Part shown: piece after piece, positions 1-64,000 of the stretch
Layout of the letters: each line of letters starts with the position of its first letter
Numbering within the stretch: the stretch's first letter is position 1
Source: a virus
DNA length: 64,000 nt
IMG/VR virus record: IMGVR_UViG_3300028197_000003
Location: 96,001 to 160,000 of that record
Reading direction: 5' to 3' (one strand)
Made by a program: the position numbers and the translations under genes
The notes under the pieces: model-generated
What the model saw: only the letters and a program-made list of their open reading frames with translations
Told to the model about the DNA's origin: nothing
The model's database searches: none

Positions 1-148
1 TGATGCAGATGACGTTCTGTCCATCGGTGCTAATGCTGTTTCCTTGAATGGTGGCACGATCAAGGACAAAGGTACGAGCACTGTCTCTACTATCACAAAC
101 TCCGGCGCAATTGGTACTGCAGCAGGATCAATTACTGTAGTTGCATAA
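1..148 (+). CDS. 3' end of an upstream gene, probably a virion structural or fibre-like protein (partial)
   Basis: Frame 2 is open from the window edge: DADDVLSIGANAVSLNGGTIKDKGTSTVSTITNSGAIGTAAGSITVVA*, G/T/S-rich. Confidence 0.55.
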   Translation, partial: DADDVLSIGANAVSLNGGTIKDKGTSTVSTITNSGAIGTAAGSITVVA

Positions 149-155
149 TTTCTAA

Positions 156-536
156 ATGCGATTTGATGAACTAAATGATGACAATTATTTGCTCTTCGCT
201 ATAAAATATTACGAAAATCCTCTTGCGGCAACAATGGAGGATTTTCAAAATGATATGAGGCGGTTCAAATATATCAAAAGATTATTCAAAAAATATATGA
301 TTCAAGGAGGTGAACTAAAGTATCATCTAATTCTAAATCATCTTATTATTTGTTTCAATATCTTTGATGAAGGCGCTGTTCCTTTATTATTCTATAAGAT
401 AGATCGAGAGTATTGGTCAATGCTCAAAACATTTCTTATATTCTTGAATAGGATTCCAGAATACCCAAAATCTGGACTAGATGATCTACAAATTGATAAT
501 GAAGTATACTCTATACTAAATTCAATTGATGGATGA
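156..536 (+). CDS. conserved cyanomyovirus hypothetical protein
   Basis: 126-aa ORF (MRFDELNDDNYLLFAIKYYENP...) in its usual position upstream of primase. Confidence 0.8.
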   Translation: MRFDELNDDNYLLFAIKYYENPLAATMEDFQNDMRRFKYIKRLFKKYMIQGGELKYHLILNHLIICFNIFDEGAVPLLFYKIDREYWSMLKTFLIFLNRIPEYPKSGLDDLQIDNEVYSILNSIDG

Positions 537-1088: not shown

Positions 1089-1099
1089 GACACGGTAAC

Positions 1100-6001: not shown

Positions 6002-6687
6002 AATTTTATTTTGATGGGGACTCTTTTACTTATGGTGGTAGTCTAGACAAAGTAGGTGCAGTTGCAGAAGAAGTTAGGTGGTCTAAGTTAGTATGTGATC
6101 ACTTTGGTGCTGAAGAAATAAACTTATCTACTGGTGGTGCTAGTAACGATGCAGTTATGAGGCATACGTTTAGTAGACCCACTACTGAGGTTCATGACTT
6201 TTATTTTTTTCAAACCACTATTCCTAGTAGAGGTGAGATTTTTGACCCTAAAACGCAGGGGTGGATGAAATATGGTCTGAATGAGGATGTAGAAACCAGA
6301 TGTATGGAACGATGGGGACCCATAGAAGGACCAAAATTTATACAGTGGATACGGTTTGGATTTAGTAGAGTCCATAATGAACATTATGGGAGGACTAAAG
6401 AAACTATTACATACAATGCATTGAAGTCTTACGTTGCATCTATAGGTCGAGCAAGAAGATCTTTCTTTAGTACGTTAGTGCGTTTTGAAAAAGACAAACC
6501 ATGTACTGATAATAAGTATGATCTGTATCACATAAACAAAATAAACAACTGGCCTAAGCATAAAGTTGTACCACCAGAACTATTGGTATATGATAAAATA
6601 CCCAACGATGGACACCCTTCTGTAGAAGGGCATAAGACAATAGCAAAATACGTTATAGATATAGTAACTGAAAGAATCAAAGATTGA
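5998..6687 (+). CDS. SGNH/GDSL hydrolase-like protein, copy 1
   Basis: FDGDSFTYG block I, GASND, C-terminal DGHPS; ATG5998 overlaps the previous stop. Confidence 0.75.
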   Translation: MKFYFDGDSFTYGGSLDKVGAVAEEVRWSKLVCDHFGAEEINLSTGGASNDAVMRHTFSRPTTEVHDFYFFQTTIPSRGEIFDPKTQGWMKYGLNEDVETRCMERWGPIEGPKFIQWIRFGFSRVHNEHYGRTKETITYNALKSYVASIGRARRSFFSTLVRFEKDKPCTDNKYDLYHINKINNWPKHKVVPPELLVYDKIPNDGHPSVEGHKTIAKYVIDIVTERIKD

Positions 6688-13495: not shown

Positions 13496-13851
13496 AAGAG
13501 AATCGCCCTTGGGGTTGGTATGAAACTATTGAAGATGGATCAGACTACAAACTAAAAAAGATCTATCTGCACCCAAGACAACGTTTCTCACTCCAATTCC
13601 ACAGGAAAAGAACAGAACAGTGGATCGTAATTCAAGGTAGTGGTGTAATCACTTTAGGTCACGATGATCTTGAATGCAAACCAGGGGATAGTTTTACTAT
13701 CGGTATTGAACAACGTCATCGTGCTGAAGCAGGTGATGATGGACTTACTTTTTTTGAAGTACAAAGAGGTGAGTGTGATGAATGTGACATTGTCCGTATA
13801 GAGGATGATTACGGTCGCACTGGCAATTCAATTTTAGATTATTTGATATGA
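13492..13851 (+). CDS. mannose-6-phosphate isomerase type II cupin domain protein
   Basis: RPWGWY, FSLQFHRKRTEQW, HR, EVQRG...DIVRIEDDYGR. Confidence 0.9.
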   Translation: MKENRPWGWYETIEDGSDYKLKKIYLHPRQRFSLQFHRKRTEQWIVIQGSGVITLGHDDLECKPGDSFTIGIEQRHRAEAGDDGLTFFEVQRGECDECDIVRIEDDYGRTGNSILDYLI

Positions 13852-14795
13852 CTTACATGGTTACCGGCGGTGCCGGGTTTATTGGTAGTAACTTTTTACA
13901 TTTCCTCACTAAAAAAACGTCAGAACCTATTGTCGTACTTGATAATCTGACTTACGCTGGTGACATGAGATTTATTCCTGTTACTAAGCAGGTAAAATTT
14001 GAGTGGTGTGATATCTCAAATGAAGATCATGTATTGTTTCTATTTGAGAAATACCAACCCAAAAAGATCTGGCATTTTGCGGCAGAGAGTCACGTAGATA
14101 ATAGCATCGCCAACTATCGACCTTTCCTAGAGGCAAATGTTATAGGCACTATCAATCTCCTCAATGCTTCATTGAATACGGAGGTTGAAAAGTTCCATCA
14201 CATTTCTACTGATGAGGTGTATGGATCTCTGGAGTATGACGATACGGAACTCTTCACAGAAGAGACCCCATACAATCCTAAAAACCCATACTCTGCAAGC
14301 AAAGCAGCATCAGATCATTATGTCAAGACTTGGCATAATACATATGATCTTCCATACCTAATCACTAACTGTAGTAATAACTATGGTGTGCGTCAGCACG
14401 TAGAAAAACTTATTCCAAAAGTTATCGGTCGTGCAATGAGGGACGAGGTTACTTACATGTATGGGGGTGGTCAACAGATCCGTGATTGGTTGTATGTCAA
14501 CGATCATTGTGAAGCAATCTGGTCACTAGAAAAAGAAGGTGTAATCAATAACCATTTCAATATTGGTGGTGGTTGTGAAATGAGAAACATTGATGTGACT
14601 AAGAAAATCTTGGATCTTTTGAAAAAACCACATGATCTTATTGGGATATCCCATGAAAGACCTGGTCAAGACAAGCGTTATGGCATAAAATATGATAAAC
14701 TGACTAAGTGTACTGGGTGGAAACCCTGTACTGATTTTGATTACGGACTACGTGCAACTGTTTCATGGTACTTAGAAAGATGGGGACTGATCTGA
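13848..14795 (+). CDS. rmlB: dTDP-glucose 4,6-dehydratase
   Basis: VTGGAGFIGSNF, AAESHVDNSI, STDEVYG, YSASK, RPGQDKRY. Confidence 0.93.
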   Translation: MTYMVTGGAGFIGSNFLHFLTKKTSEPIVVLDNLTYAGDMRFIPVTKQVKFEWCDISNEDHVLFLFEKYQPKKIWHFAAESHVDNSIANYRPFLEANVIGTINLLNASLNTEVEKFHHISTDEVYGSLEYDDTELFTEETPYNPKNPYSASKAASDHYVKTWHNTYDLPYLITNCSNNYGVRQHVEKLIPKVIGRAMRDEVTYMYGGGQQIRDWLYVNDHCEAIWSLEKEGVINNHFNIGGGCEMRNIDVTKKILDLLKKPHDLIGISHERPGQDKRYGIKYDKLTKCTGWKPCTDFDYGLRATVSWYLERWGLI

Positions 14796-15619
14796 AGTCC
14801 TACAACAGTCCGGTCACTCTCTATGGTCCTGGTTTTGTAGGTGGTAGGTATGCTGAGATGTTTCCTGATACTTTGGTACAGGAACGCGATGAATACAAAC
14901 CACAATCTAAGAAGATTCTCTACATGATCTCTACGGTGGACAACTATAATGTTCACAAGGATCTCAATATGGATGTTGATACTAATCTTCGTCTTCTTTG
15001 TGATGTCTTACATCATTGTCGTAATGAAGACATTGAGTTCAACTTTATCTCCTCATGGTTTGTGTATGGTAAGGGGTGCGAGATTCCTGCCCATGAGTCA
15101 GATCATTGCAACCCAACTGGGTTCTATAGCATCACCAAGAAGTGTGCAGAAGATCTAATCAAATCATTCTGTGATGTATACAAGATGAAGTATCGCATTC
15201 TTCGTCTTTGTAATGTTATGGGAGATGATCCCAAAGCATCAAAACAAAAGAATGCAATCATGTGGATGATCAATCAACTAAAAGAGCACAAACCAATTGA
15301 TCTTTATGATCAAGGTAGTCACCGTCGTGATGTCATGCATGTTGATGACGTATGTCGTGCAATCAAAACTGTTATTTCTGAAGGTGATTTGAATGCCGTC
15401 TATAATATTGGGTCAGGTATACCCACTCCTATTGCTGATATTGTTGATACAGCAGTATCTGTCTTGACCAGTCGTTCTGCCATAGATATGATTGATCCTC
15501 CCAAGTTTCATAATGATGTCCAGACACAAGACTTTTATCTTGACACCACTAAACTTCAGGAATTAGGATTCAGACCAAGCATGGACACAGTTGAAATCGT
15601 GGAGTCGTTATGCTCGTAA
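14780..15619 (+). CDS. NAD-dependent epimerase/dehydratase (extended SDR)
   Basis: GPGFVG, SSWFVYG, YSITK, RDVMHVDDV. Confidence 0.85.
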   Translation: MGTDLKSYNSPVTLYGPGFVGGRYAEMFPDTLVQERDEYKPQSKKILYMISTVDNYNVHKDLNMDVDTNLRLLCDVLHHCRNEDIEFNFISSWFVYGKGCEIPAHESDHCNPTGFYSITKKCAEDLIKSFCDVYKMKYRILRLCNVMGDDPKASKQKNAIMWMINQLKEHKPIDLYDQGSHRRDVMHVDDVCRAIKTVISEGDLNAVYNIGSGIPTPIADIVDTAVSVLTSRSAIDMIDPPKFHNDVQTQDFYLDTTKLQELGFRPSMDTVEIVESLCS

Positions 15620-16911
15620 GAAAGAAAGTTGAAAACTTTATTGATGCCCTAGAGGCAGATGGTGAAAAACTATTTCCCTACATGGCAAACAGGGGATGGC
15701 AACCAGGTGATAACATTTACTATTCTGGTCCTTACTGGGACAATCAAGAACCTGCTGCCGCTATCACTACCTTACTCCAAGGTAAATGGTTGCCTGCTGG
15801 TGAAGAAGTCAACAAATTTGAACGTGCATTCTCTAAGCAGTTTGAGTTTGACTATTCTGTGATGGTGAACAGTGGATCATCTGCCAACCTGGTGATGATT
15901 GCTGCACTAAAAAAGTATTTTGATTGGCATGATGGTGATGAGATCATTGTCTGCACCTGTGGGTTCCCCACAACTATCAATCCCATCATCCAGAATGGTC
16001 TTACACCAGTCTTTGTAGATATCAACTATGGTGATCTCAACTGGGATCTTGATCAACTAGAGAGCAAGATTACTCCTAGAACTGTGGCGCTTTTTTCGTC
16101 TCCTGTTCTGGGAAATCCCTATGACTTCGATAAGTTCATCGAGATTGTCGATAGGAATAACCTGCGGTACATCGCTGACAACTGTGACTCGCTCGGTTCC
16201 AAGTGGCGTGGTGAGTTGCTTACCAAACATGCCGTCGCAGCGTCTTGTTCTTTCTATCCAGCGCACCATATCAGCACGATTGAAGGCGGGATGGTTTCTT
16301 CTAACATTGAGGAGATCGTTCAGATCGCCAGGTCTTTCGCATGGTGGGGGAGAGGTTGTTATTGTGTAGGAACCCAGAATAAATTGCCCAACGGTGTCTG
16401 TGGGCAACGCTTCGACCGCTGGTTGGAAGGGTACGATCAAGATGTCGATCATAAGTATGTCTTTGGCGTTCAAGGATACAACCTCAAGCCTGCCGACTTG
16501 CAAGGGTCTATTGGGTTGGTACAACTGACTAAGCAAAATGAGATACATAGCATCCGTCGTAGCAACAAAGCTAGACTTCACGAGATCTTCAGTCAGATTC
16601 CGGGTGCTCGGGTTATTGAAGAGAAAGAGCATGCAGAGACTAGTTGGTTTGGTGTTCCTATCGTCTGCGAAGAATATAAACACCGCCTCGTAAAATATTT
16701 AGAGAGTAATAAAGTCCAGACAAGGAACTATTTTGCTGGTAATATTCTAATGCATCCTGCATACCAACATATTGAACCTGCAAGCAATTATCCAAACGCA
16801 TGTAAGGTTTTAGATAATGTATTTTTTGTTGGATGTAGTCCTGTTATTACTGAACCTATGTTAGAATACATAGATGAGGTTGTTTCTAATTACATTTCTG
16901 AAAATTACTAA
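15610..16911 (+). CDS. rfbH: DegT/RfbH-like PMP-dependent NDP-4-keto-6-deoxyhexose 3-dehydrase
   Basis: VNSGSSANL; SFYPAHHI (His where aminotransferases have Lys); CYC...C cluster; RNYFAGN. Confidence 0.85.
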   Translation: MLVRKKVENFIDALEADGEKLFPYMANRGWQPGDNIYYSGPYWDNQEPAAAITTLLQGKWLPAGEEVNKFERAFSKQFEFDYSVMVNSGSSANLVMIAALKKYFDWHDGDEIIVCTCGFPTTINPIIQNGLTPVFVDINYGDLNWDLDQLESKITPRTVALFSSPVLGNPYDFDKFIEIVDRNNLRYIADNCDSLGSKWRGELLTKHAVAASCSFYPAHHISTIEGGMVSSNIEEIVQIARSFAWWGRGCYCVGTQNKLPNGVCGQRFDRWLEGYDQDVDHKYVFGVQGYNLKPADLQGSIGLVQLTKQNEIHSIRRSNKARLHEIFSQIPGARVIEEKEHAETSWFGVPIVCEEYKHRLVKYLESNKVQTRNYFAGNILMHPAYQHIEPASNYPNACKVLDNVFFVGCSPVITEPMLEYIDEVVSNYISENY

Positions 16912-18011
16912 TGGATAGACAAAAGCGAGCATTGGTCCTGGGTGCCGGTGGTTTCATCGGTAGTCATATGGTCAAGCGACTCAAGACCGAAGGGTATTGG
17001 GTTCGTGGTGTGGACCTCAAGGTTCCTGACTTCTCAGATTCAGTAGCGGATGAATTCATCCAAGGTGATCTGCGAGATTATACTTTTGTCGAACGTGTAA
17101 TTGAGTACAAGGGTGAACAGGGTAACTTTTATAACTCTGTTCCCTACCAGTACATCGACACCTTTGATGAGATCTATCAGTTTGCTGCTGACATGGGTGG
17201 TGCTGGTTACATCTTTACTGGTGAGCATGATGCAGATATCATGCACAACTCTGCAAGCATCAACTTGAACTTGCTGCAGTCAGTCTATAAATTCAATGAG
17301 ACCTTTGATGGTCGTGATAAAGAGTGGACTGTAGCAAATCGTCCTAAGAAAGATCAACCCACAAAGATCTTTTATAGTTCTTCTGCTTGCATGTATCCAG
17401 AGCACAATCAACTAGACCCCGATAATCCAGACTGCCGTGAAGAATCTGCGTACCCTGCTGCTCCTGATTCGGAGTACGGCTGGGAAAAACTCTTTAGCGA
17501 AAGACTTTACTTTGCTTACAACCGTAATCATGGGATTCCTGTTCGTGTCGCTCGCTATCACAACATCTTCGGACCTGAAGGAACCTGGGAAGGTGGAAAA
17601 GAGAAGGCACCTGCTGCAATCTGCCGCAAAGTCGCTTTCCTCCCGCTCCAAGGTGGAGCTATCGAGGTGTGGGGAGACGGCTTACAGACTCGTTCCTTCT
17701 TGTTCATTGATGAATGCATCGAAGCGACTTGGAGACTGATGCAGTCTGACTTCATGGGTCCTGTGAACATTGGATCTGAGGAGATGGTCACCATCAATCA
17801 ACTGGCAGAAATCACGGCGAAAGTTGCACGTAAAGATGTTACCAAGATTCATCTTGATGTTCCTCACACAGGTGTTCGAGGACGCAACTCCAACAACGAT
17901 CTAATTCGAGAGAAATTAGGTTGGGATTATTCTCAATCCCTTGAAGAAGGTATCTCTCTGACTTACAATTGGATCATTCAACAAATCGGGAAGAACCTTG
18001 AGGGATCATGA
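16911..18011 (+). CDS. NDP-sugar epimerase, GDP-mannose 3,5-epimerase-like
   Basis: GAGGFIG, AADMGGAG, SSACMYP, YGWEK, EKAPAAICRKV. Confidence 0.85.
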   Translation: MDRQKRALVLGAGGFIGSHMVKRLKTEGYWVRGVDLKVPDFSDSVADEFIQGDLRDYTFVERVIEYKGEQGNFYNSVPYQYIDTFDEIYQFAADMGGAGYIFTGEHDADIMHNSASINLNLLQSVYKFNETFDGRDKEWTVANRPKKDQPTKIFYSSSACMYPEHNQLDPDNPDCREESAYPAAPDSEYGWEKLFSERLYFAYNRNHGIPVRVARYHNIFGPEGTWEGGKEKAPAAICRKVAFLPLQGGAIEVWGDGLQTRSFLFIDECIEATWRLMQSDFMGPVNIGSEEMVTINQLAEITAKVARKDVTKIHLDVPHTGVRGRNSNNDLIREKLGWDYSQSLEEGISLTYNWIIQQIGKNLEGS

Positions 18012-18664
18012 ACACTACGTATAACTATGAACGCGATGCTCTGAAGTCTACTTTCACAGGGCACACTAAAGTTTTTGAAAATTTCTCTCAAGCATACCAG
18101 GATTTGTTTGTCCTAACTATGTTGAATGGAAAAAAGAATGGTAAGTATGTGGAGGTGGGTGCTAATCATCCCCAATCTTTGAACAATACTTTCCTACTTG
18201 AGACAGTATTTGGTTGGCGTGGTTTCTCTGTAGAGATTGAGCGTTCAATGTGTGAGGTTTTCAACGGAGACATGGCACGGCAGAACCAATGCTATGAAGC
18301 AGATGCCACTACGTTTGATTACTCCGAGGCAATCGCTAAAGAAAAGTGGCAGGGTCGTATTGATTACTTCTCTGTTGACTGTGAACCTCCTGAGGTGACG
18401 TTCAAGGCACTCAAAGCATTCCCTCATGATGAATTCCGTGCCAGCGTTATCACCTTTGAACATGACTCGTACAAGGACGGTGAGACTATCCGTGATCATT
18501 CACGTCAATTCTTAGAAGATCTTGGTTACCAACTGGTATGTGCCAGTGTTTGTAATGGTGGTAATTCTTATGAAGATTGGTGGGTTGATCCTACTGTTGT
18601 AAAAGAATCAGTTTGGAAACCCTTTGAGTGTGTTGATGTAGAAGCACGAAACATTTTGGTATGA
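18008..18664 (+). CDS. FkbM-like SAM-dependent methyltransferase
   Basis: SQAYQD, YVEVGA, IDYFSVDCE, YEDWW. Confidence 0.7.
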   Translation: MNTTYNYERDALKSTFTGHTKVFENFSQAYQDLFVLTMLNGKKNGKYVEVGANHPQSLNNTFLLETVFGWRGFSVEIERSMCEVFNGDMARQNQCYEADATTFDYSEAIAKEKWQGRIDYFSVDCEPPEVTFKALKAFPHDEFRASVITFEHDSYKDGETIRDHSRQFLEDLGYQLVCASVCNGGNSYEDWWVDPTVVKESVWKPFECVDVEARNILV

Positions 18665-19434
18665 AACTATCTCATTGGTATGGAAGACTTGGTAACAACA
18701 TTCAACAGTGTGCTGTTGGTTTGATGTGTGCTCAGGCATACAACACCGAGTTTATCCAACCCCTAGAGCACGAGATAATTCCTACCTTCACTGAAAAGTT
18801 TGGTGACACTAGAAGGTCTGGGTTTAGTAAATTTTTTTATTATGATGGACCATTCAGAGAAGTTCCGATCGAAATCGGTAAAATTTATACCGAGATCCGA
18901 TCGTTTTGTAAAACATATATCAGACCGCGTCTTGACCTCCCAAATGTGGAGGTGGATCCTGATTGCCTTGTTATTCATATTCGTAGTGGAGATGTCTTTG
19001 ACCGGGGGGTTGATAATCCTGGTCAATATGTCCCTAATCCTTACTGTTTTTATGGTGCACTACTTGAGAATTTTGAGAAGGCAATTGTCGTCACTGAACC
19101 TGACCGACACAATCCAATTGTTGAAGAACTCAGGTGGAATCCTAAGGTTACGATCCAATCTAAAAGCGTTGCGGAGGATTTTGCTACGCTAATGGCAGCA
19201 AAACATGTTGCTACGTCTGGAGTAGGGACGTTTGGTATTGCTGCAGCACTTTGTAGTGATAAAATTACTAATCTTTATTGCACAGACCTGTGTATTGGTG
19301 AACATCTAAATTATAAAATGCTTTATAATACGGATGTAGTCATCAATATGATGGTCCTGATGGACTATATCAAAACAGGAGAGTGGGCGAACACTAATGA
19401 ACAACGAGAGTTCCTCTTTAGTTACAAGGTATAA
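18661..19434 (+). CDS. GT11-like glycosyltransferase
   Basis: GRLGNNIQQ, IHIRSGD, GTFG. Confidence 0.65.
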   Translation: MKLSHWYGRLGNNIQQCAVGLMCAQAYNTEFIQPLEHEIIPTFTEKFGDTRRSGFSKFFYYDGPFREVPIEIGKIYTEIRSFCKTYIRPRLDLPNVEVDPDCLVIHIRSGDVFDRGVDNPGQYVPNPYCFYGALLENFEKAIVVTEPDRHNPIVEELRWNPKVTIQSKSVAEDFATLMAAKHVATSGVGTFGIAAALCSDKITNLYCTDLCIGEHLNYKMLYNTDVVINMMVLMDYIKTGEWANTNEQREFLFSYKV

Positions 19435-19939
19435 ACTCAAGGTTACTCATCAAAAACTGATTGAGAATCTGTGTCATGAGATGCCCTACTATTTTTTCAA
19501 GGACTGTGCCTACGGCAACGTAGACCATCCCTTGAGAAAAGAAATGAATCCTTACTTCAGTCATACGTTATTGCATGTCAAGGGCACAACGTCTGACTTT
19601 TTTTATAAGTTTCCATGGGATGAGATTGGTAAAGCAATCAACCTACCAGACAAGAAAATGTTCAGGGCACACATGACCCTGCAATATCCTAGACCCACTG
19701 CTGTGGGTGTACCTCACAATCCCCACGTTGATGACGACCGTCCACATGTAGTTGCACTCTATTATCCTAATGATTCTGATGGCGACACATACTTTTTTGA
19801 TTCATCTGGTGAAGTGATACATACAGAAGAACCTAAACGTGGTAAAATAATAGTGTTCAATGGCAGAACACTCCACTCCAGTTCTTCTCCCTCCTCTAAC
19901 GTACGCTTTTCTTTGAACATAAATTATGGCAGTCTATGA
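19397..19939 (+). CDS. 2OG-Fe(II) oxygenase-like protein
   Basis: PHVD...DGDT...HSSS...RFSLN. Confidence 0.7.
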   Translation: MNNESSSLVTRYKLKVTHQKLIENLCHEMPYYFFKDCAYGNVDHPLRKEMNPYFSHTLLHVKGTTSDFFYKFPWDEIGKAINLPDKKMFRAHMTLQYPRPTAVGVPHNPHVDDDRPHVVALYYPNDSDGDTYFFDSSGEVIHTEEPKRGKIIVFNGRTLHSSSSPSSNVRFSLNINYGSL

Positions 19940-20771
19940 TGTGTTCACGTTCTATAATGAACTGGACTTACTTGAACTAAGAATGAATATTCTTGGTAAC
20001 GAAGTAGATTATTTTGTTATCAATGAAGCTAATATTACTTTTACTGGTAAACAAAAACCTATGTACTTCTCCGAGAACCGTAAGCGGTTCAAGAAGTGGG
20101 AAGACAAGATCATTTATCATGAGACGATTGATGACAATCAAACGTTAGAAAATTTCTGGGAGAATGTTCCGTACCACCGGAGCATGATGGAAGATGATAT
20201 CTATAAACTGCCACTGCCATACCAACGTGCATGCTTCCATAAAGACAGTGCAATCTATGCTCTGCTAGGTAAGGTAAAGGATGACGACATCATCCTTACC
20301 AGTGATGCTGATGAAATTGCAAATCCTGAAGCATTGAAATGTATTGATGAATGGTTTGATCCTAGTAATCATTACGTTCTTACTGGTCCTCTTTATTACT
20401 ACTACCTCAACGTCAAGTGTGAAGACCAGTGGATGGGAACCAGAGTGTGTGATTTCAAAACACTGAAGACAATGAGTGTTGACAAACTCCGTCAGTCACA
20501 TCATGAGGCATATAAGATTGCTAACGCTTCATGGCATTGGAGTTTCTTCGGTGATGCAGACACGGTACGGCAGAAGATGGACGCCTATGAGCACCAGGAA
20601 AATAATAAAGAAGAGTTTAGGTCTAGTATGGAGGACAGGATCAAGCATAATTTAGATCCTTATGGTCGTAGTTATCTTTATCAACCTACGGTAGTTGATA
20701 TTGATGATAGTTTCCCTTCATATGTGAGGGCACAGAAGAATCGTAAACTGAAGAAGTTTGTGAAAGTATGA
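19926..20771 (+). CDS. GT17-family (beta-1,4-GlcNAc transferase-like) glycosyltransferase
   Basis: YDVFTFYNELDLLELR, SDADEI, WHWSF. Confidence 0.8.
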   Translation: MAVYDVFTFYNELDLLELRMNILGNEVDYFVINEANITFTGKQKPMYFSENRKRFKKWEDKIIYHETIDDNQTLENFWENVPYHRSMMEDDIYKLPLPYQRACFHKDSAIYALLGKVKDDDIILTSDADEIANPEALKCIDEWFDPSNHYVLTGPLYYYYLNVKCEDQWMGTRVCDFKTLKTMSVDKLRQSHHEAYKIANASWHWSFFGDADTVRQKMDAYEHQENNKEEFRSSMEDRIKHNLDPYGRSYLYQPTVVDIDDSFPSYVRAQKNRKLKKFVKV

Positions 20772-21673
20772 AACTGATTTCGGGACCAGCGGTTGCAGAT
20801 CTTTGTGACTACAGTTTTGGTGATCAAGCAGGCATGGTAGGAGGAGTCTATGGTGCCTTTATGAATGATGCTAATTCATCTAACACTGATTTCTTATGTG
20901 ATAAAGAGGTTATCAAACTATTCATTGATAATATCAGGTTGTATCACAGACCAATCAAGTGTGGTAATAAAAAAGATCAGGTGTGGATCAATGGTCTACA
21001 AAAACGTAATGATCTTATGAAACTCTGTGCTCATTATCCTGAGAAAAAATTTATAATTTTCTGCAACAACGAAGACACTCCTATCAATTCTGATATTGAT
21101 ATCCCCGACAATGTGTTGGGGATTTTTGCTGCAAATGCAGTGGGGTTCAAAGATAAATTATATCCATTTCCTTATGGTGTGGGTAGGAAGTTGAGTGCCA
21201 ATGATGAACGTCAAAGTATTCTCCACGCTGCTATGGAGAAGGATCCTAAACCTAAAAAACTACTCTACATCAATCATGCAGAGCACACTAACATCAGTGC
21301 ACGTGGCAACATCCGTGAAATCTTTAGCAAGTTACATTACGCCACGGTCGGGGAAGCGGTAAACTATCATACCTACGTGAGAGAGATTCAGAATCATAAA
21401 TTTATGATCTGTCCTCAAGGTAATGCAGTTGATTGTCACCGAAACTGGGAGGTTCTCTATCTAAAAAGGGTGCCAATCATGGTGAAAAATGATTACTTGC
21501 AAGAGTTGTATAAAAATTATCCTGTGTTATGGGTAGATGACTTTGGTAAGATCACTAAATCTGTGTTGTCGAATGCTCAAGATCTTTGTGACAAGGCTAG
21601 AAATATTGACACTAATCTGTTAGACTTATACTCGGTGTTCAACAGGGCAGTCAAACGTGCTAAAGATTCCTGA
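20768..21673 (+). CDS. exostosin (GT47)-like protein
   Basis: HKFMICPQGNAVDCHRNWEVLYLKRVPI. Confidence 0.7.
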   Translation: MKLISGPAVADLCDYSFGDQAGMVGGVYGAFMNDANSSNTDFLCDKEVIKLFIDNIRLYHRPIKCGNKKDQVWINGLQKRNDLMKLCAHYPEKKFIIFCNNEDTPINSDIDIPDNVLGIFAANAVGFKDKLYPFPYGVGRKLSANDERQSILHAAMEKDPKPKKLLYINHAEHTNISARGNIREIFSKLHYATVGEAVNYHTYVREIQNHKFMICPQGNAVDCHRNWEVLYLKRVPIMVKNDYLQELYKNYPVLWVDDFGKITKSVLSNAQDLCDKARNIDTNLLDLYSVFNRAVKRAKDS

Positions 21674-22328
21674 AGTTACACTGCTGATGCTAGCAGATGT
21701 TGACATACCAGAAGCAGTCTATGCGGTAAATAAATCATGTGAATCTATTGAATGGGGCGCTGTCAAATTTCTTGGCAGTAAAGGAAGACCAGAAGGTCTC
21801 TGTGATCAAGCACAGTATGAGAAAACTTATCCAATTCAAAGTATCAATGATTTCAATTTTTATTGCATATATAATTTTCTCAATCATATTCAGTCCTCGC
21901 ATTGCCTCCTTATTCATCCTGACGGTTTTGTTATTCGACCTTGGTTATGGGATAATTCGTGGTTACAATACGACTACATCGGTGCCCCGTGGAGAGACGA
22001 TCCAACCGCCTACCTCGACCCCTGGGGTAAGAACCAGCGGGTTGGGAATGGGGGATTTTCCTTACGTTCCAGAAAGTTATTACAAGTTCCCTCGCGTGTG
22101 ACTGTGCCTTGGGAAGTCAATGAAGGAGACTTTTATAAGCATATGAATGCTGGACTATATAACGAGGACGGAAACATATGTATCCACAATCGGCACCTTT
22201 TTGAGGAACAAGGATGCGTCTTTGCTCCAGTGGAAGTTGCCGCTAGGTTCTCTAAAGAGGTAGAGTGCCCAGAACACAAAGGTGTCGAGACCTTTGGTTT
22301 TCATTATCATTTTCAAGACATCCGATGA
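21657..22328 (+). CDS. DUF5672-like glycosyltransferase-associated protein
   Basis: HPDGFV, YDYIGAPW, VGNGGFSLRS, ED, FGFH. Confidence 0.75.
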   Translation: MLKIPEVTLLMLADVDIPEAVYAVNKSCESIEWGAVKFLGSKGRPEGLCDQAQYEKTYPIQSINDFNFYCIYNFLNHIQSSHCLLIHPDGFVIRPWLWDNSWLQYDYIGAPWRDDPTAYLDPWGKNQRVGNGGFSLRSRKLLQVPSRVTVPWEVNEGDFYKHMNAGLYNEDGNICIHNRHLFEEQGCVFAPVEVAARFSKEVECPEHKGVETFGFHYHFQDIR

Positions 22329-23116
22329 CAGTCAAATATTATCCTCTGTGGTGGAACCCTTGGCAAGACAAGCATCTTGATCTTGGCGATAAGTCTGTCA
22401 GCATTTCTATTGATAACCTTGATTATGATCCGCAAGCAGATGTAAAAATTCTGTTCTTAGCGGAACCATATTCAATCCTTCCTACGGTAACTGAGGGAGC
22501 ACTTCGTGGTGCTTATCATTTTGATAAGATCTATACGTTCACTCAAAAAATTATCGACACACACCCTCAAGCAGAATTGTTTGAGTGGGGATCTAGTTGG
22601 TTGAATTTTTCTGATCTTATTATTGATAAGGGTAACAACGTTACCTTTGTTACGAGTAATAAGAATCAAACTGTTGGACACAACATGCGTCTTGACATCT
22701 TTGAGATGCTCAAGAAGGTAGATGTATCTAATGGACTACAATACTATGCACATATGTCACCTCCTTTCCATCAACGGAGGAATGATTTCTTTGAGAACGC
22801 TAAGTTTCATATTACAGTAGAGAACTCTCGCCAACAGAATTACTTTACTGAAAAGGTTATTGATTGCTTTGCGTCAAAAACTGTACCCATTTACTATGGT
22901 TGTCCTAACCTTAGTGATTGGTTCAATATGGATGGTGTGATTGTATTTCATGATATGGAAGAGCTTGAACTTATCCTAAGACATCTGGATACTGAAATGT
23001 ATGATTGGAGAAAACCTGCAATCGATCAGAACTATGAAATTGCTAAGCGTTTCCATAGTGAAAACGATGTAGTGCCTAGACTTACAAATAAAATCAAGGA
23101 GTTTGTAGGGAAATGA
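22325..23116 (+). CDS. GT10 (fucosyltransferase)-like protein
   Basis: FHITVENS, YFTEKVIDCF, PIYYG. Confidence 0.7.
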   Translation: MTVKYYPLWWNPWQDKHLDLGDKSVSISIDNLDYDPQADVKILFLAEPYSILPTVTEGALRGAYHFDKIYTFTQKIIDTHPQAELFEWGSSWLNFSDLIIDKGNNVTFVTSNKNQTVGHNMRLDIFEMLKKVDVSNGLQYYAHMSPPFHQRRNDFFENAKFHITVENSRQQNYFTEKVIDCFASKTVPIYYGCPNLSDWFNMDGVIVFHDMEELELILRHLDTEMYDWRKPAIDQNYEIAKRFHSENDVVPRLTNKIKEFVGK

Positions 23117-23796
23117 GAGTAAGTTTTTGCATTCCTACGCATGATAAGAACCCTAGGTGCCAACAGTATCTGTTTGACATCTTTCATAGTCTGTCATTGC
23201 AGAAGGATATGAACTTCAATGTTTGGGTGTCTGATCATGGCACATCAAACAAAGTTCAAAGAGCATGTCAAGAGTATGATGATCTGTTCGAGATCAATTA
23301 TGTTCAGAACACAGAAAAGATAGGTAACATTTCTGCTAATACCAATAACGCTATGCGTTTAGCAGATGGTGACATCTTGAAAATTATCTTCAGTGATGAT
23401 ATGATTCTAACTAAGAATCTAAGTTCTGAACTTGACGCTACCTTTACTGAAGGAGTGGAGTGGGCAGTGACTGGATTTGCTCATACCTTAGATGATGGTA
23501 AGACTCACTACAACCCTAAGATTCCTGTCTATAACAATCGTTTGCTAGAGGGTGTCAACACTCTCAGTTCTCCATCTATTCTTGCTCTCCGTAATGGGTG
23601 TGAGGAATACTTTGATGAAGAACTTACTATGCTGATGGACTGTGACATGTACTATAGGTTGTATGAGAACTATGGGGAACCAAAAGTTCTTAGTCACTAC
23701 CACATCTCTAATAGAGAACACCCCCATCAAACACAACGTAAGTATGAGAACCTTATGCCTCAGGAGATTGAATATTTGAAGGAGAAGCATAAATGA
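23113..23796 (+). CDS. GT2-family glycosyltransferase
   Basis: VSFCIPT, VSD, NTNNAMRLADGD, FSDD, MDCD. Confidence 0.8.
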   Translation: MRVSFCIPTHDKNPRCQQYLFDIFHSLSLQKDMNFNVWVSDHGTSNKVQRACQEYDDLFEINYVQNTEKIGNISANTNNAMRLADGDILKIIFSDDMILTKNLSSELDATFTEGVEWAVTGFAHTLDDGKTHYNPKIPVYNNRLLEGVNTLSSPSILALRNGCEEYFDEELTMLMDCDMYYRLYENYGEPKVLSHYHISNREHPHQTQRKYENLMPQEIEYLKEKHK

Positions 23797-24581
23797 TTGG
23801 ATTCAATCACCTGGGTCGTCATGGTCGTCTGGGTAATCAGATGTTTCAGTATGCAGGACTACGTGGCATTGCTGCTAAGCATGGGTATGACTTCTGTATT
23901 CCTCCTAGCGATTTTCAAGACCAATGGACTGACCATCAATTGTTTGAGTGCTTCAAACTTACTGGACTAACGAATATTGCAGTGTGTCCTGGACCTTACG
24001 TACAGGAAGAACATTTTCACTTTGATAAGAACCTGTTTGACAACATGCCTGATGGGCATAATGTCTACGGGTATCTACAAAGCGAAAAATGGTTCAAACA
24101 TATTGAATCTGAAATCCGTGAGGACTTTGAATTCAAAAACAATATCAAAGAACCATGCCAAGAAATGATTGGTTCGGTTGACCGACCAATTGCTCTGCAT
24201 GTTCGGAGGGGTGACTACATAACTAACTGCGACAACCACCCTCCATGCACCAAGGATTATTATGAACGTGCCCTTTCGCACTTTGATTCTGACAGGACTG
24301 TCGTTGTTTTTTCTGATGATCCTGCTTGGTGTAACGAACAATTTGTAGATGATCGTTTTTTGATCTCTGAGGGTGGCGACAATGTTGCCGACCTCTGTAT
24401 GATGAGTCTATGTCACGACTTTATCATTGCTAACTCATCATTCTCATGGTGGGGGTCTTGGTTGAGTGCAAACTCAGACAAGACAATCATCGCCCCTAAC
24501 CGTTGGTTCGGTGACGGGTATACTAAAGACCACGACACCTCTGACCTTTACTGCCCTAACTGGAAATCTATCAATGTCTGA
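23793..24581 (+). CDS. GT11 alpha-1,2-fucosyltransferase-like protein
   Basis: GRLGNQMFQYA, GYLQSEKWF, HVRRGDY, FSDD, ANSSFSWWG. Confidence 0.88.
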   Translation: MIGFNHLGRHGRLGNQMFQYAGLRGIAAKHGYDFCIPPSDFQDQWTDHQLFECFKLTGLTNIAVCPGPYVQEEHFHFDKNLFDNMPDGHNVYGYLQSEKWFKHIESEIREDFEFKNNIKEPCQEMIGSVDRPIALHVRRGDYITNCDNHPPCTKDYYERALSHFDSDRTVVVFSDDPAWCNEQFVDDRFLISEGGDNVADLCMMSLCHDFIIANSSFSWWGSWLSANSDKTIIAPNRWFGDGYTKDHDTSDLYCPNWKSINV

Positions 24582-25536
24582 AACAATCCACCAAGAAGGT
24601 GTTGAAATTCAAGATCTTGGAATATACGAAGATCTTCAGATCCAACCGGTAAACTCCTGGGACCTGACTAAAACAACCTTCATCATTCCTTTGCGAATTG
24701 AAAGTGTTGATCGGATGCGTAACATCACGACAACACTAGTGTATCTTCTGCGTAATTTTGATACTCAGATCATTATCAAGGAACATGATGTTGAATCTAT
24801 TTTCTTGAAGAGTGTGGTGCCAATGCTTGATGAAGCATTGCCTCCTGAGAAGATGGAGAAGATTCATCATATCTTTGAGGAGAGTAATGATAAAGTCTTC
24901 CATAGGACTCGTTTGATCAACGACATGCTGATGTTGGTTGAGACCCCTGTGGTCTGCAACTATGACTGTGATGTCTTGCTGCCGATGAACAACTACATCT
25001 TGGCGCAGAATGCCATTCTAACCGGTTGGGTTCCCCCAAATGATCCTGAGGCAACTCCTGAACCTGTGAAGTGTGTCTATCCTTATGGGTGTGGAGACTA
25101 TCAGTACCAGTTACGAGTTACTGATGAGGACTGTACTCGGTTCATCAACAGCAACTTCAACTTCAATGCATTTGAGAAAAATGCAACTTTGTATGATGCC
25201 AAGTTTGGTTTCGTACAGTTCTTTGACACTAAAGAATACCTTCGATTGGGTGCAGAAAACGAAGGGTTTGTTGCTTATGGATATGAAGATGACGAACGTT
25301 ACAGTCGCTTCAATCTTTGTTCACAAGTGCTGCGTCTAAATGATTTGATCTATCATATGGAGCACCGTCGTACTCCTAACTCTTGGTTCAACAACCCTCA
25401 CATCGAAGAGAACCGTGCGTTGTGGGAAAAACTTGGCAACATGAGTAGGGACGCTATTGAAGAATATTATAAGGATCCCCTATACATGGTGTATCGTGGT
25501 GTCCGCAATGGCAAACGCCCTGGCACGGATGACTGA
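24574..25536 (+). CDS. GT7-C (galactosyltransferase C-terminal-like) glycosyltransferase
   Basis: FHRTRLIN, YDCD, GAENEGFVAYGYEDDE, YHMEH. Confidence 0.75.
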   Translation: MSETIHQEGVEIQDLGIYEDLQIQPVNSWDLTKTTFIIPLRIESVDRMRNITTTLVYLLRNFDTQIIIKEHDVESIFLKSVVPMLDEALPPEKMEKIHHIFEESNDKVFHRTRLINDMLMLVETPVVCNYDCDVLLPMNNYILAQNAILTGWVPPNDPEATPEPVKCVYPYGCGDYQYQLRVTDEDCTRFINSNFNFNAFEKNATLYDAKFGFVQFFDTKEYLRLGAENEGFVAYGYEDDERYSRFNLCSQVLRLNDLIYHMEHRRTPNSWFNNPHIEENRALWEKLGNMSRDAIEEYYKDPLYMVYRGVRNGKRPGTDD

Positions 25537-26329
25537 TAGGAATAAGTCTATCGACAAACTGAAGGGGTTCCCTAAAGTTCTTTGGATCAATCTAGACCGT
25601 GTGACCCAGAGACGGGAATACATGGAAGATCAATTGAACTACTGGGGACTCACTGATAACCACCGCATCAGTGGTATTGATGGTGATGAGTATGAGGACA
25701 ACCTGAAAGGTTCTGTACCTCATAATATGAACAAAGGTGAGATTGCATGTGTAATGTCTCACCTCAATGCTCTACGTTATTTTGTCGAAGAGACTGACCT
25801 AGATGAAATCTTCATCATGGAGGACGACATCGATCTCTCCACTGTCAAGCATTGGACTTTCACTTGGAAGGATGTTAGGAAGCGACTGCCCATCAACTGG
25901 GACTGCCTGCAACTAACCATCATCAATCCCAATGGGATTACTCTCAAGTTACATCAAAGGTTCATCAATGATTTCTCTGCTGCTGGTTACTTGATCAGCA
26001 GGCACCATGCAACCAAGGTCCTCCGGTGTCACCTCCGTGGCAACCAGTGGAAACTGGATCAGAACATCAGACCTCGTGCAGTTTCAGAGGATTTGATTCT
26101 TGACAGTGGTAAATCTTATTCTACTCCTTTGTTCAACTACAGATTAGACATGGGTTCTGCTATTCATGAAGAACACATTGACATCTTTCATAAGGGTAGT
26201 AATGAGGCATTAGCAGAGTTCTGGGAGAGAGATGCTAGAGAGCATACTGTCGATCAGATTATGGAACTAGATGAATATTGTGGTAGAATACCACCATCAG
26301 TGTATATGGAACACGCACAAAAGCAATGA
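25529..26329 (+). CDS. GT25 (LPS-biosynthesis-like) glycosyltransferase
   Basis: INLDRVTQRR, GEIACVMSH, IMEDD, SAAGYLIS. Confidence 0.85.
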   Translation: MTDRNKSIDKLKGFPKVLWINLDRVTQRREYMEDQLNYWGLTDNHRISGIDGDEYEDNLKGSVPHNMNKGEIACVMSHLNALRYFVEETDLDEIFIMEDDIDLSTVKHWTFTWKDVRKRLPINWDCLQLTIINPNGITLKLHQRFINDFSAAGYLISRHHATKVLRCHLRGNQWKLDQNIRPRAVSEDLILDSGKSYSTPLFNYRLDMGSAIHEEHIDIFHKGSNEALAEFWERDAREHTVDQIMELDEYCGRIPPSVYMEHAQKQ

Positions 26330-27072
26330 CAGACGAGATCCTGACGCAACCTGACTTTACTGAACCCTTTTTCTATGACCACATAGGTGTCTTTGAGAAC
26401 TTTGTGCGTTGGGAATTCTGTGATTCTTTACGTGAGGTTTTTGAATACTGGTACAACAAAAAGCATTTCGTAGGAGAATCCTCCGAACATTCAGTCACAA
26501 AAATTGGAGAAAATGATTTTACCATTGACCACTTCAATGATGGGGAGTCTCAATTTCCTAAAGGTGGCATGGGTCGTAAGGACCATCAACTTTACCTTGA
26601 AGTTTGTGACACGACGATGACCGCTCAGGTCAATCAAGCAATCGGTCAAGCATTTGAGATGTATGTACAGAAGTACAAAGGTCTTGTTGATTCTGCTGAT
26701 CCCATTTCTTCATGGACTTGTAAACTTCAACGTACAGATCCTGGCGGTGGATATCATGTATGGCATTGTGAGAATGGTAACTTCCTCTACCGTGACCGTG
26801 TGCTGACGTGGATGATTTATCTGAATGATATCCCTCCTGAGAATGGTGGCGGCACTGACTTCTATCACCAGGAGAAAACGTTCCATCCTAAGAAGGGAAC
26901 TATTGTTCTCTGGCCTGCTACTTACACCCACATGCACAGAGGTGGATTCCTTACAGGGGATGAATCTAAGTACATTGCTACTGGATGGTTCTTACGTGAA
27001 CCTGGTAACGTTACGAACCGTACAGTAAGCGAAGCAATGGGTAAATCAAAACCTGTGGACAACCTAAATTGA
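26326..27072 (+). CDS. 2OG-Fe(II) oxygenase
   Basis: YHVWHCE, YLND, GGGT, HRG, KYIATGW. Confidence 0.85.
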   Translation: MTDEILTQPDFTEPFFYDHIGVFENFVRWEFCDSLREVFEYWYNKKHFVGESSEHSVTKIGENDFTIDHFNDGESQFPKGGMGRKDHQLYLEVCDTTMTAQVNQAIGQAFEMYVQKYKGLVDSADPISSWTCKLQRTDPGGGYHVWHCENGNFLYRDRVLTWMIYLNDIPPENGGGTDFYHQEKTFHPKKGTIVLWPATYTHMHRGGFLTGDESKYIATGWFLREPGNVTNRTVSEAMGKSKPVDNLN

Positions 27073-29546: not shown

Positions 29547-30484
29547 TCCTCTACACATCCATCACTAACGGATACTTTCAGTTGCCGCAATTGGATATTG
29601 ATTGTAGATGTGTTTGTTTTCATGATGGAAGTGTGTATGAGCAAGAAGGATGGGAACTAAAGTACATACCTGGGTTCTCATCTGATCCTATTCGTATGTC
29701 ACGTCTGGTAAAGATGATATGTCCATTTGATGAACCTAATGTTTACATTGATGCATCTAAATTACATACACTAAACAATAAATTTTGTGAAGTAAGTAAT
29801 TTTATTCTTTCTCAGGATACTTTTACTGTAATAGAGCATCCACATTCTCATACGTATCTTGAAGAGTGTGCTGAATATATTTGTAGAGGACTTGTTCCTT
29901 TCTCTGATGTGTATAAGTTCACGGTTGCTGCTGCGGAGGCAGGGTATAACTTCAAAGACTATCTGTCACCGCTATGTACGATCCTCTGGAGGAGGGGTAA
30001 GACTGACTTCGACCAACTCTGGTGGGACTGGTACTTGAAGGGTGGTAGGAGGGATCAACTGTCCTTTGCAGTGGCATTGCAGATGAGTGGTATGAAGTAT
30101 GAAACTATTCTTGCTAGAGAACTGATTGATGTATGGTCAGACGCTAGCGATGGTGGTGAGTGGTGGGCGAACAAGGGTGGTAGGTATGGTGCTAAGTATC
30201 ATGTCAATCCTGAGTGGGCAGTAGACATCCTATGTAATATGACAGGTCTGGAAAAGAACTCAAGGAACTATCGCTGTGCTGTCCTTACTGAAGATGATCA
30301 ACCTGTCTGGTTGTTTGGTGATATGTCAAATGATTTCGATTATAAGTACAGAAAATTGAACGTTTTGAATCCATATCACAGTCTTCTGTGGTATACCAAT
30401 AGAAAGACTGGTGTTATACGAAGACCGAGTCGAACTATTAGATCACACTTTGATGATCCATTCTTTTTCCCACACCCCATATGA
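29543..30484 (+). CDS. DUF616-like glycosyltransferase
   Basis: ILYTSITNGY, YIDAS, HPH, RDQLSF. Confidence 0.7.
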   Translation: MILYTSITNGYFQLPQLDIDCRCVCFHDGSVYEQEGWELKYIPGFSSDPIRMSRLVKMICPFDEPNVYIDASKLHTLNNKFCEVSNFILSQDTFTVIEHPHSHTYLEECAEYICRGLVPFSDVYKFTVAAAEAGYNFKDYLSPLCTILWRRGKTDFDQLWWDWYLKGGRRDQLSFAVALQMSGMKYETILARELIDVWSDASDGGEWWANKGGRYGAKYHVNPEWAVDILCNMTGLEKNSRNYRCAVLTEDDQPVWLFGDMSNDFDYKYRKLNVLNPYHSLLWYTNRKTGVIRRPSRTIRSHFDDPFFFPHPI

Positions 30485-59314: not shown

Positions 59315-59320
59315 CCCCCT

Positions 59321-59327: not shown

Positions 59328-59347
59328 TAATTACTGATTGACTTATT

Positions 59348-61873: not shown

Positions 61874-63672
61874 AGAATATAAAACCATTATCTAATATCC
61901 TCAAGCAGAGAAATACGGAAGCTTTTAGACTTTATGAAAGAAGTCTAAAACTGAAAAAAGAACTTGTCAAAAAGCGTGGCGAAGCGTTTGATAGGTTGAA
62001 GAGTGAACTTGCTATTTCTAAAGAAAAGGAAGGAGGAGGAGGACTCAATGGTTTATTAGGTTTAGGTGGTGCTGCCGCTACAGGCGGTCTTATAAGAAGT
62101 CTTAGAAATAGGTTTCTAAAACCAAAAGGTCCTAATGGTGGAGGACCTAAAGGTGGAGGACCTAAAGGTGGAGGACCTAGAGGTGGAGGACCTAGAGGTG
62201 GAGGAGTTACACCTGCTAATAAAATTGTTCCGAGTAAAGGTCTTAGGGGAGGTGCAGGTAAACCATCTGTGAGTGGTGGACTGAAGGGTGGTTTGCGAAT
62301 GGGCAAATTCAATGCCGCTGCAACAGTTGCACTGACAGGTGTCGATTATGGGTTACGACTCAATGATGGTCAGACACAAGTTCAGGCAACTTCTGGTGCA
62401 CTTAGCACAACAGCAGGTGGTTTGGTAGGTATGGCTGCTGGTGCCAAAGGTGGTGCTGTATTGGGTGCTGGTATTGGTGCCTTCTTTGGTGGAGTAGGTG
62501 CGGTTCCTGGTGCTGCTATTGGTGGTGTTTTGGGTGGTTTGCTAGGAAGTTTTGGTGGTGCAACTTTAGGTGCTGGCATTTCCGATAAAGTAACTGGCGT
62601 AGGTGCAGATGAGCGACGAAAGGAAGAAGAGAAAAAACAAAGACTTAGTCAAGTAAAGAGTAATTTTGGTGGTGCTATTGAGGAATTTGATAGTGCTTTA
62701 GATCGTTTTGCATTACTTGCAAGGAAAAAAATATATTTTATTGATGATGAATATATTATTGATCTGAATGATGATAATGATATCCGTGATAGTGCTAGCA
62801 GTAAAAATCAGGGACCCACGCCAGATCTAAACGGTGGTGGCAACGTATTTGAAGCAGAGATTGAAGGAAAGACTGAAAAACACTCTGGAGGAAACCGAGA
62901 GTTTAGGTATTCTCGTAGTTATACTCCTACTGGTATAGATTATGATAAAATTCCAAGCACACCTAGCAATAAGGTTGTGCCAACTGAGCAGTTACCTATT
63001 CTAGTCAGACCCCACATAGAGGAGTTTGACATTGAAAATACTAAGGAACAAAGAATTGATACTCCTTATGGAACACTAATTCGTAAACCTGCAACAGTAT
63101 TTGCTCCAGCAGGATTTATGTTTGTAAATAAGGATCGTCAAGAAGATAGAAGATTTAGGGCAGAACAGAGCATCAGATCTGCAGCCTCTACAACGACAGC
63201 TTTGGCTACTGCGGGGTTGACTGCTGCTGCAGCAGGTAAGAAGCGTAAAGGTTCTTCTAAACCTGTAGTTAGACCTGCTAAAGTTCAACCTAAAGTTCCA
63301 CCTAAAGTTCAACCTACTAATAATGTAGTCCCATCAAATCTAGGACCTAAGCCTGTCAAGAAGCCATCATCACCGGACATGCTTAGACCAAAAGTTGAAA
63401 CCTCAGTTCAACCTGCAATTCCAAATTCTAAAGATCTTTCATTTGCATCTTTGGCACCTCTTTATACTTCTGGTCAAGGATCCAATTTTTCTTCAATGGT
63501 TCTTCCTTTGCTTGGTGCTGGAATGTTCTTAGGTGGAGCGGGTAAAGCTAAAGAGAAGAGCATGCCATTTTTACCTCCTAGCTCTCCTTCTAAGAACATT
63601 AGTATGCCAAAAACTATCTTACCCTACTCTAAATACCTTGAGTATGAATCTTATATGAAGGTCTGGAAATGA
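61870..63672 (+). CDS. tape-measure-like or baseplate-associated protein, Gly-rich
   Basis: GG.IGG-type repeats, Pro/Lys-rich linker, location in the tail module. Confidence 0.6.
   Translation: MKNIKPLSNILKQRNTEAFRLYERSLKLKKELVKKRGEAFDRLKSELAISKEKEGGGGLNGLLGLGGAAATGGLIRSLRNRFLKPKGPNGGGPKGGGPKGGGPRGGGPRGGGVTPANKIVPSKGLRGGAGKPSVSGGLKGGLRMGKFNAAATVALTGVDYGLRLNDGQTQVQATSGALSTTAGGLVGMAAGAKGGAVLGAGIGAFFGGVGAVPGAAIGGVLGGLLGSFGGATLGAGISDKVTGVGADERRKEEEKKQRLSQVKSNFGGAIEEFDSALDRFALLARKKIYFIDDEYIIDLNDDNDIRDSASSKNQGPTPDLNGGGNVFEAEIEGKTEKHSGGNREFRYSRSYTPTGIDYDKIPSTPSNKVVPTEQLPILVRPHIEEFDIENTKEQRIDTPYGTLIRKPATVFAPAGFMFVNKDRQEDRRFRAEQSIRSAASTTTALATAGLTAAAAGKKRKGSSKPVVRPAKVQPKVPPKVQPTNNVVPSNLGPKPVKKPSSPDMLRPKVETSVQPAIPNSKDLSFASLAPLYTSGQGSNFSSMVLPLLGAGMFLGGAGKAKEKSMPFLPPSSPSKNISMPKTILPYSKYLEYESYMKVWK
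62137..62205 (+). repeat. 15-bp tandem repeat, about 4.6 copies (GGGPK/R)
   Basis: ggtggaggacctaaa x2, ggtggaggacctaga x2, ggtggagga. Confidence 0.9.
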
Positions 63673-64000
63673 AGAAGTGGTTGAATGCCTATGAAGCTAA
63701 GTCACTAAACATATTTCCAGAAGGTAAAGAACCATTTTCCTTGATTGGTCAGTTTCAAGGTCTTAGATATGAAGAAGGAGTTGGTAAAACCTTGAGGGTC
63801 ACTATTATGATTGCGGACACTTTTGGGTTGTCCCAAGCATTGCCGATCAGACCTGGAAATAAAATTGAGTTGCTGTTTACTCATCCTAGTGCTAAAGAAC
63901 CATTTGAGTTCTCTGCTAAAAAGAAGAATGAGTTGTTGATTGTAAATATTGCTGGTGAGAGTGGAAACTCAAAACGACACACTTATGTTTTGGAGTGCGT
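63669..64000 (+). CDS. tail/baseplate hub protein (5' part only)
   Basis: ATG overlapping the previous stop; MKKWLNAYEAKSLNIF... stays open to the window end. Confidence 0.6.
   Translation, partial: MKKWLNAYEAKSLNIFPEGKEPFSLIGQFQGLRYEEGVGKTLRVTIMIADTFGLSQALPIRPGNKIELLFTHPSAKEPFEFSAKKKNELLIVNIAGESGNSKRHTYVLEC

Follow-up and report, generated by a model that had tools for sequence, protein, structure and literature searches.

Why should an AT-rich viral genome contain not a single TTAA? The question is raised by a stretch of 64,000 nt, hereafter called the window, that spans positions 96,001–160,000 of G000, the complete virus record IMGVR_UViG_3300028197_000003. The evidence described here points to a gene of the virus itself, a solitary restriction-endonuclease-like gene whose homologs are mostly paired with a methylase. 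We consider it highly probable that G000 possesses a phage restriction system in which site absence has taken the place of methylation, the TTAA specificity of the nuclease being deduced from its covariation with TTAA counts in related genomes.

The window (1–64,000, no strand assigned) is a TTAA-free segment of a T4-like cyanomyophage genome, as recognized from its list of open reading frames (ORFs). Its TTAA count was 0 compared to 220 expected from 3-mer and 2-mer content under a Markov model, and the resulting z-score of −14.9 was the lowest among all 4-mers. The observed/expected (O/E) ratios of the other AT palindromes and of GATC were, in contrast, close to unity (AATT, 0.96; ATAT, 0.91; TATA, 0.90; GATC, 0.99), so that a preliminary description of this DNA was correct both in reporting the word as wholly missing and in calling these four words common. 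For the complete genome, the count was 0 compared to a Markov expectation of 695. When the synonymous codons of the G000 coding DNA were shuffled, 853 TTAA sites were expected (minimum of 822 in 30 shuffles), divided among the three codon frames as 167, 667, and 19, and none was seen in any frame. The avoidance of TTAA by synonymous codon pairs that had been noticed earlier is therefore genuine, and it can be read directly from junctions such as Phe-Lys, written TTC AAA (window 264–269, + strand), and Ile-Asn, written ATA AAC (window 6118–6123, + strand). The shuffle rules out codon-pair bias as the cause. Avoidance of the TTA leucine codon is also ruled out, because this codon is used 552 times in G000; the base that follows it is never A, and the constraint thus lies on the DNA word and not on the codon. 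Words with one mismatch to TTAA were abundant in G000, as was TTSAA, and TTAA was gone in every context. The count was likewise 0 in five independent assemblies (ENA, Logan, and JGI) that derive from one phage population and are 99.6–100% identical to G000, and relatives at 78–92% nucleotide identity are also TTAA-free. Because the zero is shared by independent assemblies and diverged relatives, an assembly artifact is ruled out.

The candidate enzyme is encoded outside the window, 27.7 kb beyond its end. A PADLOC scan of the 73 unexplained G000 proteins gave a single restriction-enzyme match, a 176-residue ORF at G000 187,741–188,271 (L008:15390–15920, + strand) that matched REase_II PDLC03515 with an E value of 1.5e-22. 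The 186 positions of PDLC03515, whose source enzymes are not named, match the length of MseI, which offers a lead and no more. Residues Glu50, Asp73, Glu82, and Lys84 of the protein (E50, D73, E82, and K84), which compose an E...D...(D/E)xK catalytic motif, are invariant across 58 homologs. The predicted structure, with a predicted local distance difference test (pLDDT) score of 92.9, matched I-Ssp6803I (Z 11.3, root-mean-square deviation 2.5, 113 residues aligned), NhoI (Z 10.0), and Eco15I (Z 7.5), and also Hjc, PvuII, and EcoRV. On the basis of both the motif and the predicted fold, the protein is assigned to the PD-(D/E)XK restriction-endonuclease superfamily. Its sequence had no significant match in Pfam, NCBIfam, or the PDB, and it retrieved only unnamed, mostly viral clusters from the ESM Atlas. 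No homolog was found in 185,579 GTDB genomes by a pattern scan of limited sensitivity, or in plasmids by a scan similarly limited. A homodimer model scored 0.71 compared to 0.00 for the best control, with at least 87% contact agreement between runs and a partner pLDDT of at least 86; among solved structures, 20 of 30 homodimers and one of 23 single chains attained that mark. The model supports, but does not show, a homodimeric enzyme.

The nuclease gene stands free amid small ORFs, and a promoter scan of its vicinity yielded nine sites compared to 7.2 expected. An identical protein is encoded on 12 public contigs, with a methylase downstream in none of the five that were inspected. Among methylase-less copies, the ratio of nonsynonymous to synonymous substitution rates (dN/dS) was 0.07–0.23; the nuclease is intact and under purifying selection after methylase loss. 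The gene does not have the setting of a homing endonuclease of the I-Ssp6803I type, which would lie in or next to an intron, an intein, or a conserved target gene and have a long recognition site: it is free-standing, its homologs are methylase-coupled, and neither transfer RNA nor transfer-messenger RNA genes were found in G000.

Across related loci, the TTAA count varied with the state of the methylase. An intact cognate methylase is encoded alongside the nuclease in 30 relative loci, which together contained 606 TTAA sites compared to 1906 expected (O/E 0.32), none of the 30 being at zero. Where the methylase is dead or absent (10 loci), only two sites were found compared to 611 expected, and nine of the 10 were at zero. 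The Fisher p value for this covariation, 4e-8, overstates the evidence because the loci are related. S-ShM2, a cultured Synechococcus phage with a complete genome, has no beta-class methylase, an enzyme, gp059, 31% identical to that of G000, and no TTAA (0 of 590 expected). Zero counts were also obtained for G010 (0/323), for G006 (0/95), which has almost no genes in common with G000, and for G007 (0/196 in 60 kb). Genomes that encode the methylase keep TTAA, as seen for G008 (114/579), G009 (298/671), G012 (197/436), and S-BM3 (76/552). Most of the apparent exceptions can be resolved: in three loci the methylase is truncated at the end of the contig, and in S-BM3 it is unlinked, lying elsewhere in the genome than the nuclease. 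A further locus, L131 (29/68), where the only methylase in the vicinity is a different one of 460 residues, is explained incompletely. Among 80 control loci gathered by gp32 regardless of the nuclease, none was at zero TTAA and the median O/E was 0.94, and among 80 gathered by a Dam-class methylase, zero TTAA occurred only in three close relatives. The absence of TTAA is thus not general in T4-like cyanophages, and complete absence tracks the nuclease gene when the methylase is missing. Within G008, G009, and G012, TTAA was low in the 20-kb block that carries the restriction-modification (R-M) genes (3, 20, and 24 sites, respectively), whereas other parts of these genomes had up to 25, 84, and 98 sites. 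This distribution suggests either that TTAA-poor DNA came in along with the module or that selection is stronger on the early region.

The fate of the partner methylase can be followed in these genomes. Most viral nuclease homologs are directly followed by a translationally coupled, beta-class DPPY methylase of 250–280 residues, one example being L107:10525–11292. Neither PF01555 nor the profile of the partner methylase had a match in complete G000, and no methylase follows its nuclease gene; for lack of this cognate methylase, the G000 locus falls short of a complete Type II R-M system, although it would act as one half of such a system, with site absence for self-protection. The closest relatives possess an open frame for a 207-residue methylase remnant (L096:10528–11151 and L097:10528–11151), absent from G000, in which DPPY is changed to EPPS or EPPP, the S-adenosylmethionine-binding motif is altered, and the target-recognition stretch is deleted; their TTAA count is 0. 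The frame of this dead remnant has stayed open with a dN/dS of 0.18 between the two lineages, and the protein may still serve a purpose other than catalysis, for instance by binding the nuclease or regulating it. In a midpoint-rooted tree of the nuclease, from which 12 near-duplicate or partial rows were left out, the dead-methylase pair is sister to a methylase-less trio that includes G000, and both are nested among carriers of the intact nuclease and methylase. Further methylase-less, TTAA-free cases lie elsewhere in the tree, making about four places in all. The topology suggests that the methylase passed from intact to dead to deleted and is consistent with about four separate origins of the methylase-less, TTAA-free state. 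The methylase also occurs by itself: 51 viral loci encode it without a nearby nuclease, and marine Dehalococcoidia/Chloroflexota genomes with near-normal TTAA contain members of the family (L300–L305; 62–65% identical) but not the nuclease. No homolog of the partner methylase was found in cyanobacteria by a pattern scan that was not exhaustive.

A phage restriction system protected by site absence could have arisen as follows. A lineage would have gained a Type II R-M pair specific for TTAA, in which a small PD-(D/E)XK endonuclease was coupled to a beta-class DPPY amino-methyltransferase, and carriers of the intact pair would have shed many of their own TTAA sites. Once the sites reached zero, the methylase would have become dispensable, decaying in the sister lineage and being deleted in G000, with the nuclease kept. 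The nuclease, probably as a homodimer, would cut unmethylated TTAA-containing DNA during infection, namely the host chromosome, with consequent shut-off and nucleotide salvage, and the DNA of co-infecting phages, and the phage's own DNA would be immune because it has no TTAA site. Any new TTAA, whether introduced by mutation or by gene import, would be harmful to the phage and removed by selection, which would account for the compliance of accessory genes as well as core genes. We infer that the nuclease is expressed early and that its target in the cell is host or co-infecting phage DNA. Degradation of host DNA by the enzyme is plausible; Prochlorococcus DNA, the only host DNA for which sites were counted, contains 254 TTAA in 21 kb (∼12 per kb, O/E 0.95), and TTAA counts are normal in most other cyanophages. 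Degradation of the host chromosome and exclusion of co-infecting phages are about equally likely to be the main benefit, and both can hold, with the 51 methylase-only viral loci and the failure to detect a homolog of the nuclease in cellular genomes making us lean towards phage–phage conflict.

A comparable situation with a different word exists in S-SM2, which lacks the TTAA-type nuclease and has no CTAG (0 of 299 expected). This phage encodes a lone MjaI-family nuclease, SSM2_066 (GU071095 50,147–50,674; L209:10147–10674; Pfam RE_MjaI, E value 1e-46), that is labeled as a restriction enzyme in GenBank. No beta-class methylase was found in the S-SM2 genome, and relatives of SSM2_066 at 78–80% identity have an SPPY methylase at the same locus. 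The recognition site of MjaI is CTAG (PMC11033074). Since the word missing in S-SM2 is the known target of the MjaI family, this case supports TTAA as the target of the G000 nuclease. Both phages have a solitary restriction endonuclease, no beta-class methylase, and a cognate site count of zero, but the enzymes belong to unrelated families and their sites differ. We found no paper linking SSM2_066 to the absence of CTAG. In S-SSM4, a distant homolog of the G000 nuclease without an adjacent methylase (HQ316583 18,296–18,829; L141:2435–2968) coexists with normal TTAA and with zero counts of TTTAAA (0/53), TCGA (0/327), and CCGG (0/130). Its ortholog in P-SSM7, a phage with normal TTTAAA, has two methylases as neighbors. 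A shift of the S-SSM4 enzyme to TTTAAA specificity is possible, as judged from these counts. No enzyme for the absent TCGA or CCGG turned up when 38 proteins of S-SSM4 were scanned with PADLOC.

Several observations weigh against a self-encoded TTAA nuclease as the cause of the purging. Methyl-dependent enzymes rank among the top fold neighbors of the protein, as does a homing endonuclease. The loci used for the covariation cannot be counted as independent, having about four separate origins, G007 has two TTAA sites near its contig end, and both G006 and G007 are fragments (31–40% complete) that could hide a methylase. A Dam-class methylase (G000 79,702–80,526) is present in G000, but TTAA-normal phages carry it too. 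Finally, the purging of TTAA is real, as the preliminary description maintained, but TTAA is not the sole purged word. Eighteen other six-base palindromes, none containing TTAA, were at zero in G000, including AGTACT (0/35), TTCGAA (0/19), GACGTC (0/18), GTCGAC (0/15), and CTCGAG, and their non-palindromic variants were present. In the majority of other cyanophages tested, nuclease carriers and non-carriers alike, 16–24 six-base palindromes were missing, and no self-encoded enzymes for the absent palindromes were found in the tested genomes. RGCY (AGCT, GGCC, and AGCC/GGCT) was also reduced in G000 (O/E 0.27) and was depleted in most of the cyanophages tested. Of the methylated motifs in marine viral genomes, RGCY with N4-methylcytosine is the most common (Hiraoka et al. 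2022, PMC8919816), and the RGCY depletion is probably an effect separate from the absence of TTAA.

The loss of palindromes without a matching self-encoded enzyme indicates that outside enzymes can purge completely too, and some weight must therefore be left to the explanation that outside pressure came first, with a host MseI-like R-M system or the enzymes of other phages removing TTAA and the G000 nuclease merely tolerated. Phages are documented to avoid host Type II sites as a strategy (PMC6286503), and the 51 methylase-only viral loci are what anti-restriction would predict, although those phages fit phage-borne nucleases as the threat equally well. Against this, zero TTAA was found only in nuclease carriers or their close kin, the nuclease remains under purifying selection, and the pattern scans detected neither a nuclease homolog in the GTDB genomes nor a methylase homolog in cyanobacteria. 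We judge outside pressure to be unlikely as the primary cause. The earlier supposition of a sequence-specific enzyme thus stands, and of the two sources proposed for it, a phage-encoded TTAA nuclease is favored by the solitary gene and the covariation; no enzyme for the host option came to light in the pattern scans of GTDB and cyanobacteria. Still less probable, in our estimation, is an enzyme that is modification-dependent and cuts methylated TTAA, or that has a related, larger or looser site, such that TTAA loss would be a by-product. The methyl-dependent NhoI and Eco15I rank among the top fold matches, at the Z-scores given above, and the distant subfamily in S-SSM4 is accompanied by a loss of TTTAAA with TTAA normal; the homologs are, however, translationally coupled to an intact methylase in the classical R-M layout, and in G000 all TTAA contexts are lost with one-mismatch words and TTSAA abundant. 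That codon bias, mutational bias, or a sequence-processing artifact produced the absence is practically refuted, despite a depletion of the TA dinucleotide in the window (O/E 0.74), by null models that predict 695–853 sites and by the presence of the trait in a cultured phage as well as in diverged relatives and independently made assemblies.

A phage nuclease protected by site absence resembles several known systems and differs from each. Orthodox Type IIP R-M systems for TTAA are those of the MseI/Tru9I class. The G000 enzyme is similar to these in being a small PD-(D/E)XK endonuclease (REase_II PDLC03515) with a putative 4-bp palindromic site and relatives that have a beta-class amino-methyltransferase; it differs in being phage-encoded, in having lost its methylase, and in relying on total site absence for protection. 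PacI of Pseudomonas alcaligenes is a bacterial HNH-type 8-bp cutter that has no methylase and whose owner lacks the site, which is rare by chance. The G000 enzyme is likewise methylase-free in an owner without the site, but its candidate site is an AT-only 4-bp word, ∼700 copies of which would be expected and have been removed from an AT-rich genome. T4 uses DenA and DenB as host-DNA nucleases with self-protection by hydroxymethyl-cytosine, and chloroviruses encode R-M systems with methylation. Like these viruses, G000 would direct a nuclease of its own against non-self DNA inside the infected cell; they protect themselves by base modification or methylation, whereas G000 would do so by sequence purging. 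The exclusion of palindromic Type II sites from lytic double-stranded DNA phages has been credited to host enzymes in a study that mentions neither TTAA, cyanophages, nor Synechococcus (Rusinov et al. 2018, PMC6286503), and the present case differs in that the candidate enzyme lies in the phage itself. Our literature search, in which subscription journals were thinly covered, retrieved no description of TTAA purging or of solitary restriction enzymes in cyanophages.

Site absence alone, with neither methylation nor a modified base, would represent a third viral route to self/non-self discrimination, and its intermediate stages (intact, dead, and deleted methylase) are still visible in related genomes. 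With this gene, host-DNA breakdown or superinfection exclusion by cyanophages gains a candidate sequence-specific nuclease. Incoming genes would have to be TTAA-free, which implies a filter on gene transfer. Zero-count words offer a route to predicting the specificities of uncharacterized phage nucleases, and the model is directly testable in the cultured phages S-ShM2, S-RIM14, S-BM3, and S-SM2. The finding also bears on the puzzle that marine myoviruses have many methylases for which few matching host restriction systems have been found (Hiraoka et al. 2022, PMC8919816). As a tentative extension, to which we give somewhat less than even credence, marine cyanophages may repeatedly convert restriction systems into methylase-free weapons by target-site purging and aim them mainly at co-infecting phages. 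The cases would be TTAA (G000 and S-ShM2), CTAG (S-SM2), and perhaps TTTAAA (S-SSM4). If true, phage-against-phage restriction, and not restriction by hosts, would explain both the large number of marine-myovirus methylases and the 16–24 absent six-base palindromes, and it would limit the genes that each lineage can acquire.

G000 comprises 192,351 bp with 41.4% GC and an end overlap at 192,210. From its T4 core genes, its cyanobacterial auxiliary genes, and a size of 192 kb within the 170- to 250-kb range, it is classified among the T4-like cyanomyophages (Kyanoviridae). It encodes gp32, gp23, DNA polymerase, nrdA/B, psbA, psbD, talC, petE, and glycosyltransferase islands. The best matches of gp32 are to cyanophages, including P-SSM2, S-SKS1, and S-SM2, and its 62–70% identity to these and others means that no phage in culture is closely related to G000. 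PsbD shares 95% identity with its counterpart in Synechococcus phages, so the host may likewise be a Synechococcus. The window itself contains nrdA/B, talC, psbA, psbD, petE, petF, a lipopolysaccharide/glycosyltransferase island, td, gp55, and gp32. At window 13848–32153, nucleotide-sugar and glycosyltransferase-like genes form an 18-kb island that is accessory-looking yet entirely TTAA-free.

A second locus of G000 also deserves mention. At 79,187–80,526 (L005:9187–10526), a 172-residue ORF with a conserved D...E-M-K motif overlaps the Dam-class methylase gene. This ORF (G000 79,187–79,705) was rejected as the TTAA cutter on finding homologs 58–70% identical to it in phages with normal or near-normal TTAA. 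It accompanies only some copies of the Dam-class methylase, and the two genes are a candidate for a second phage R-M pair.

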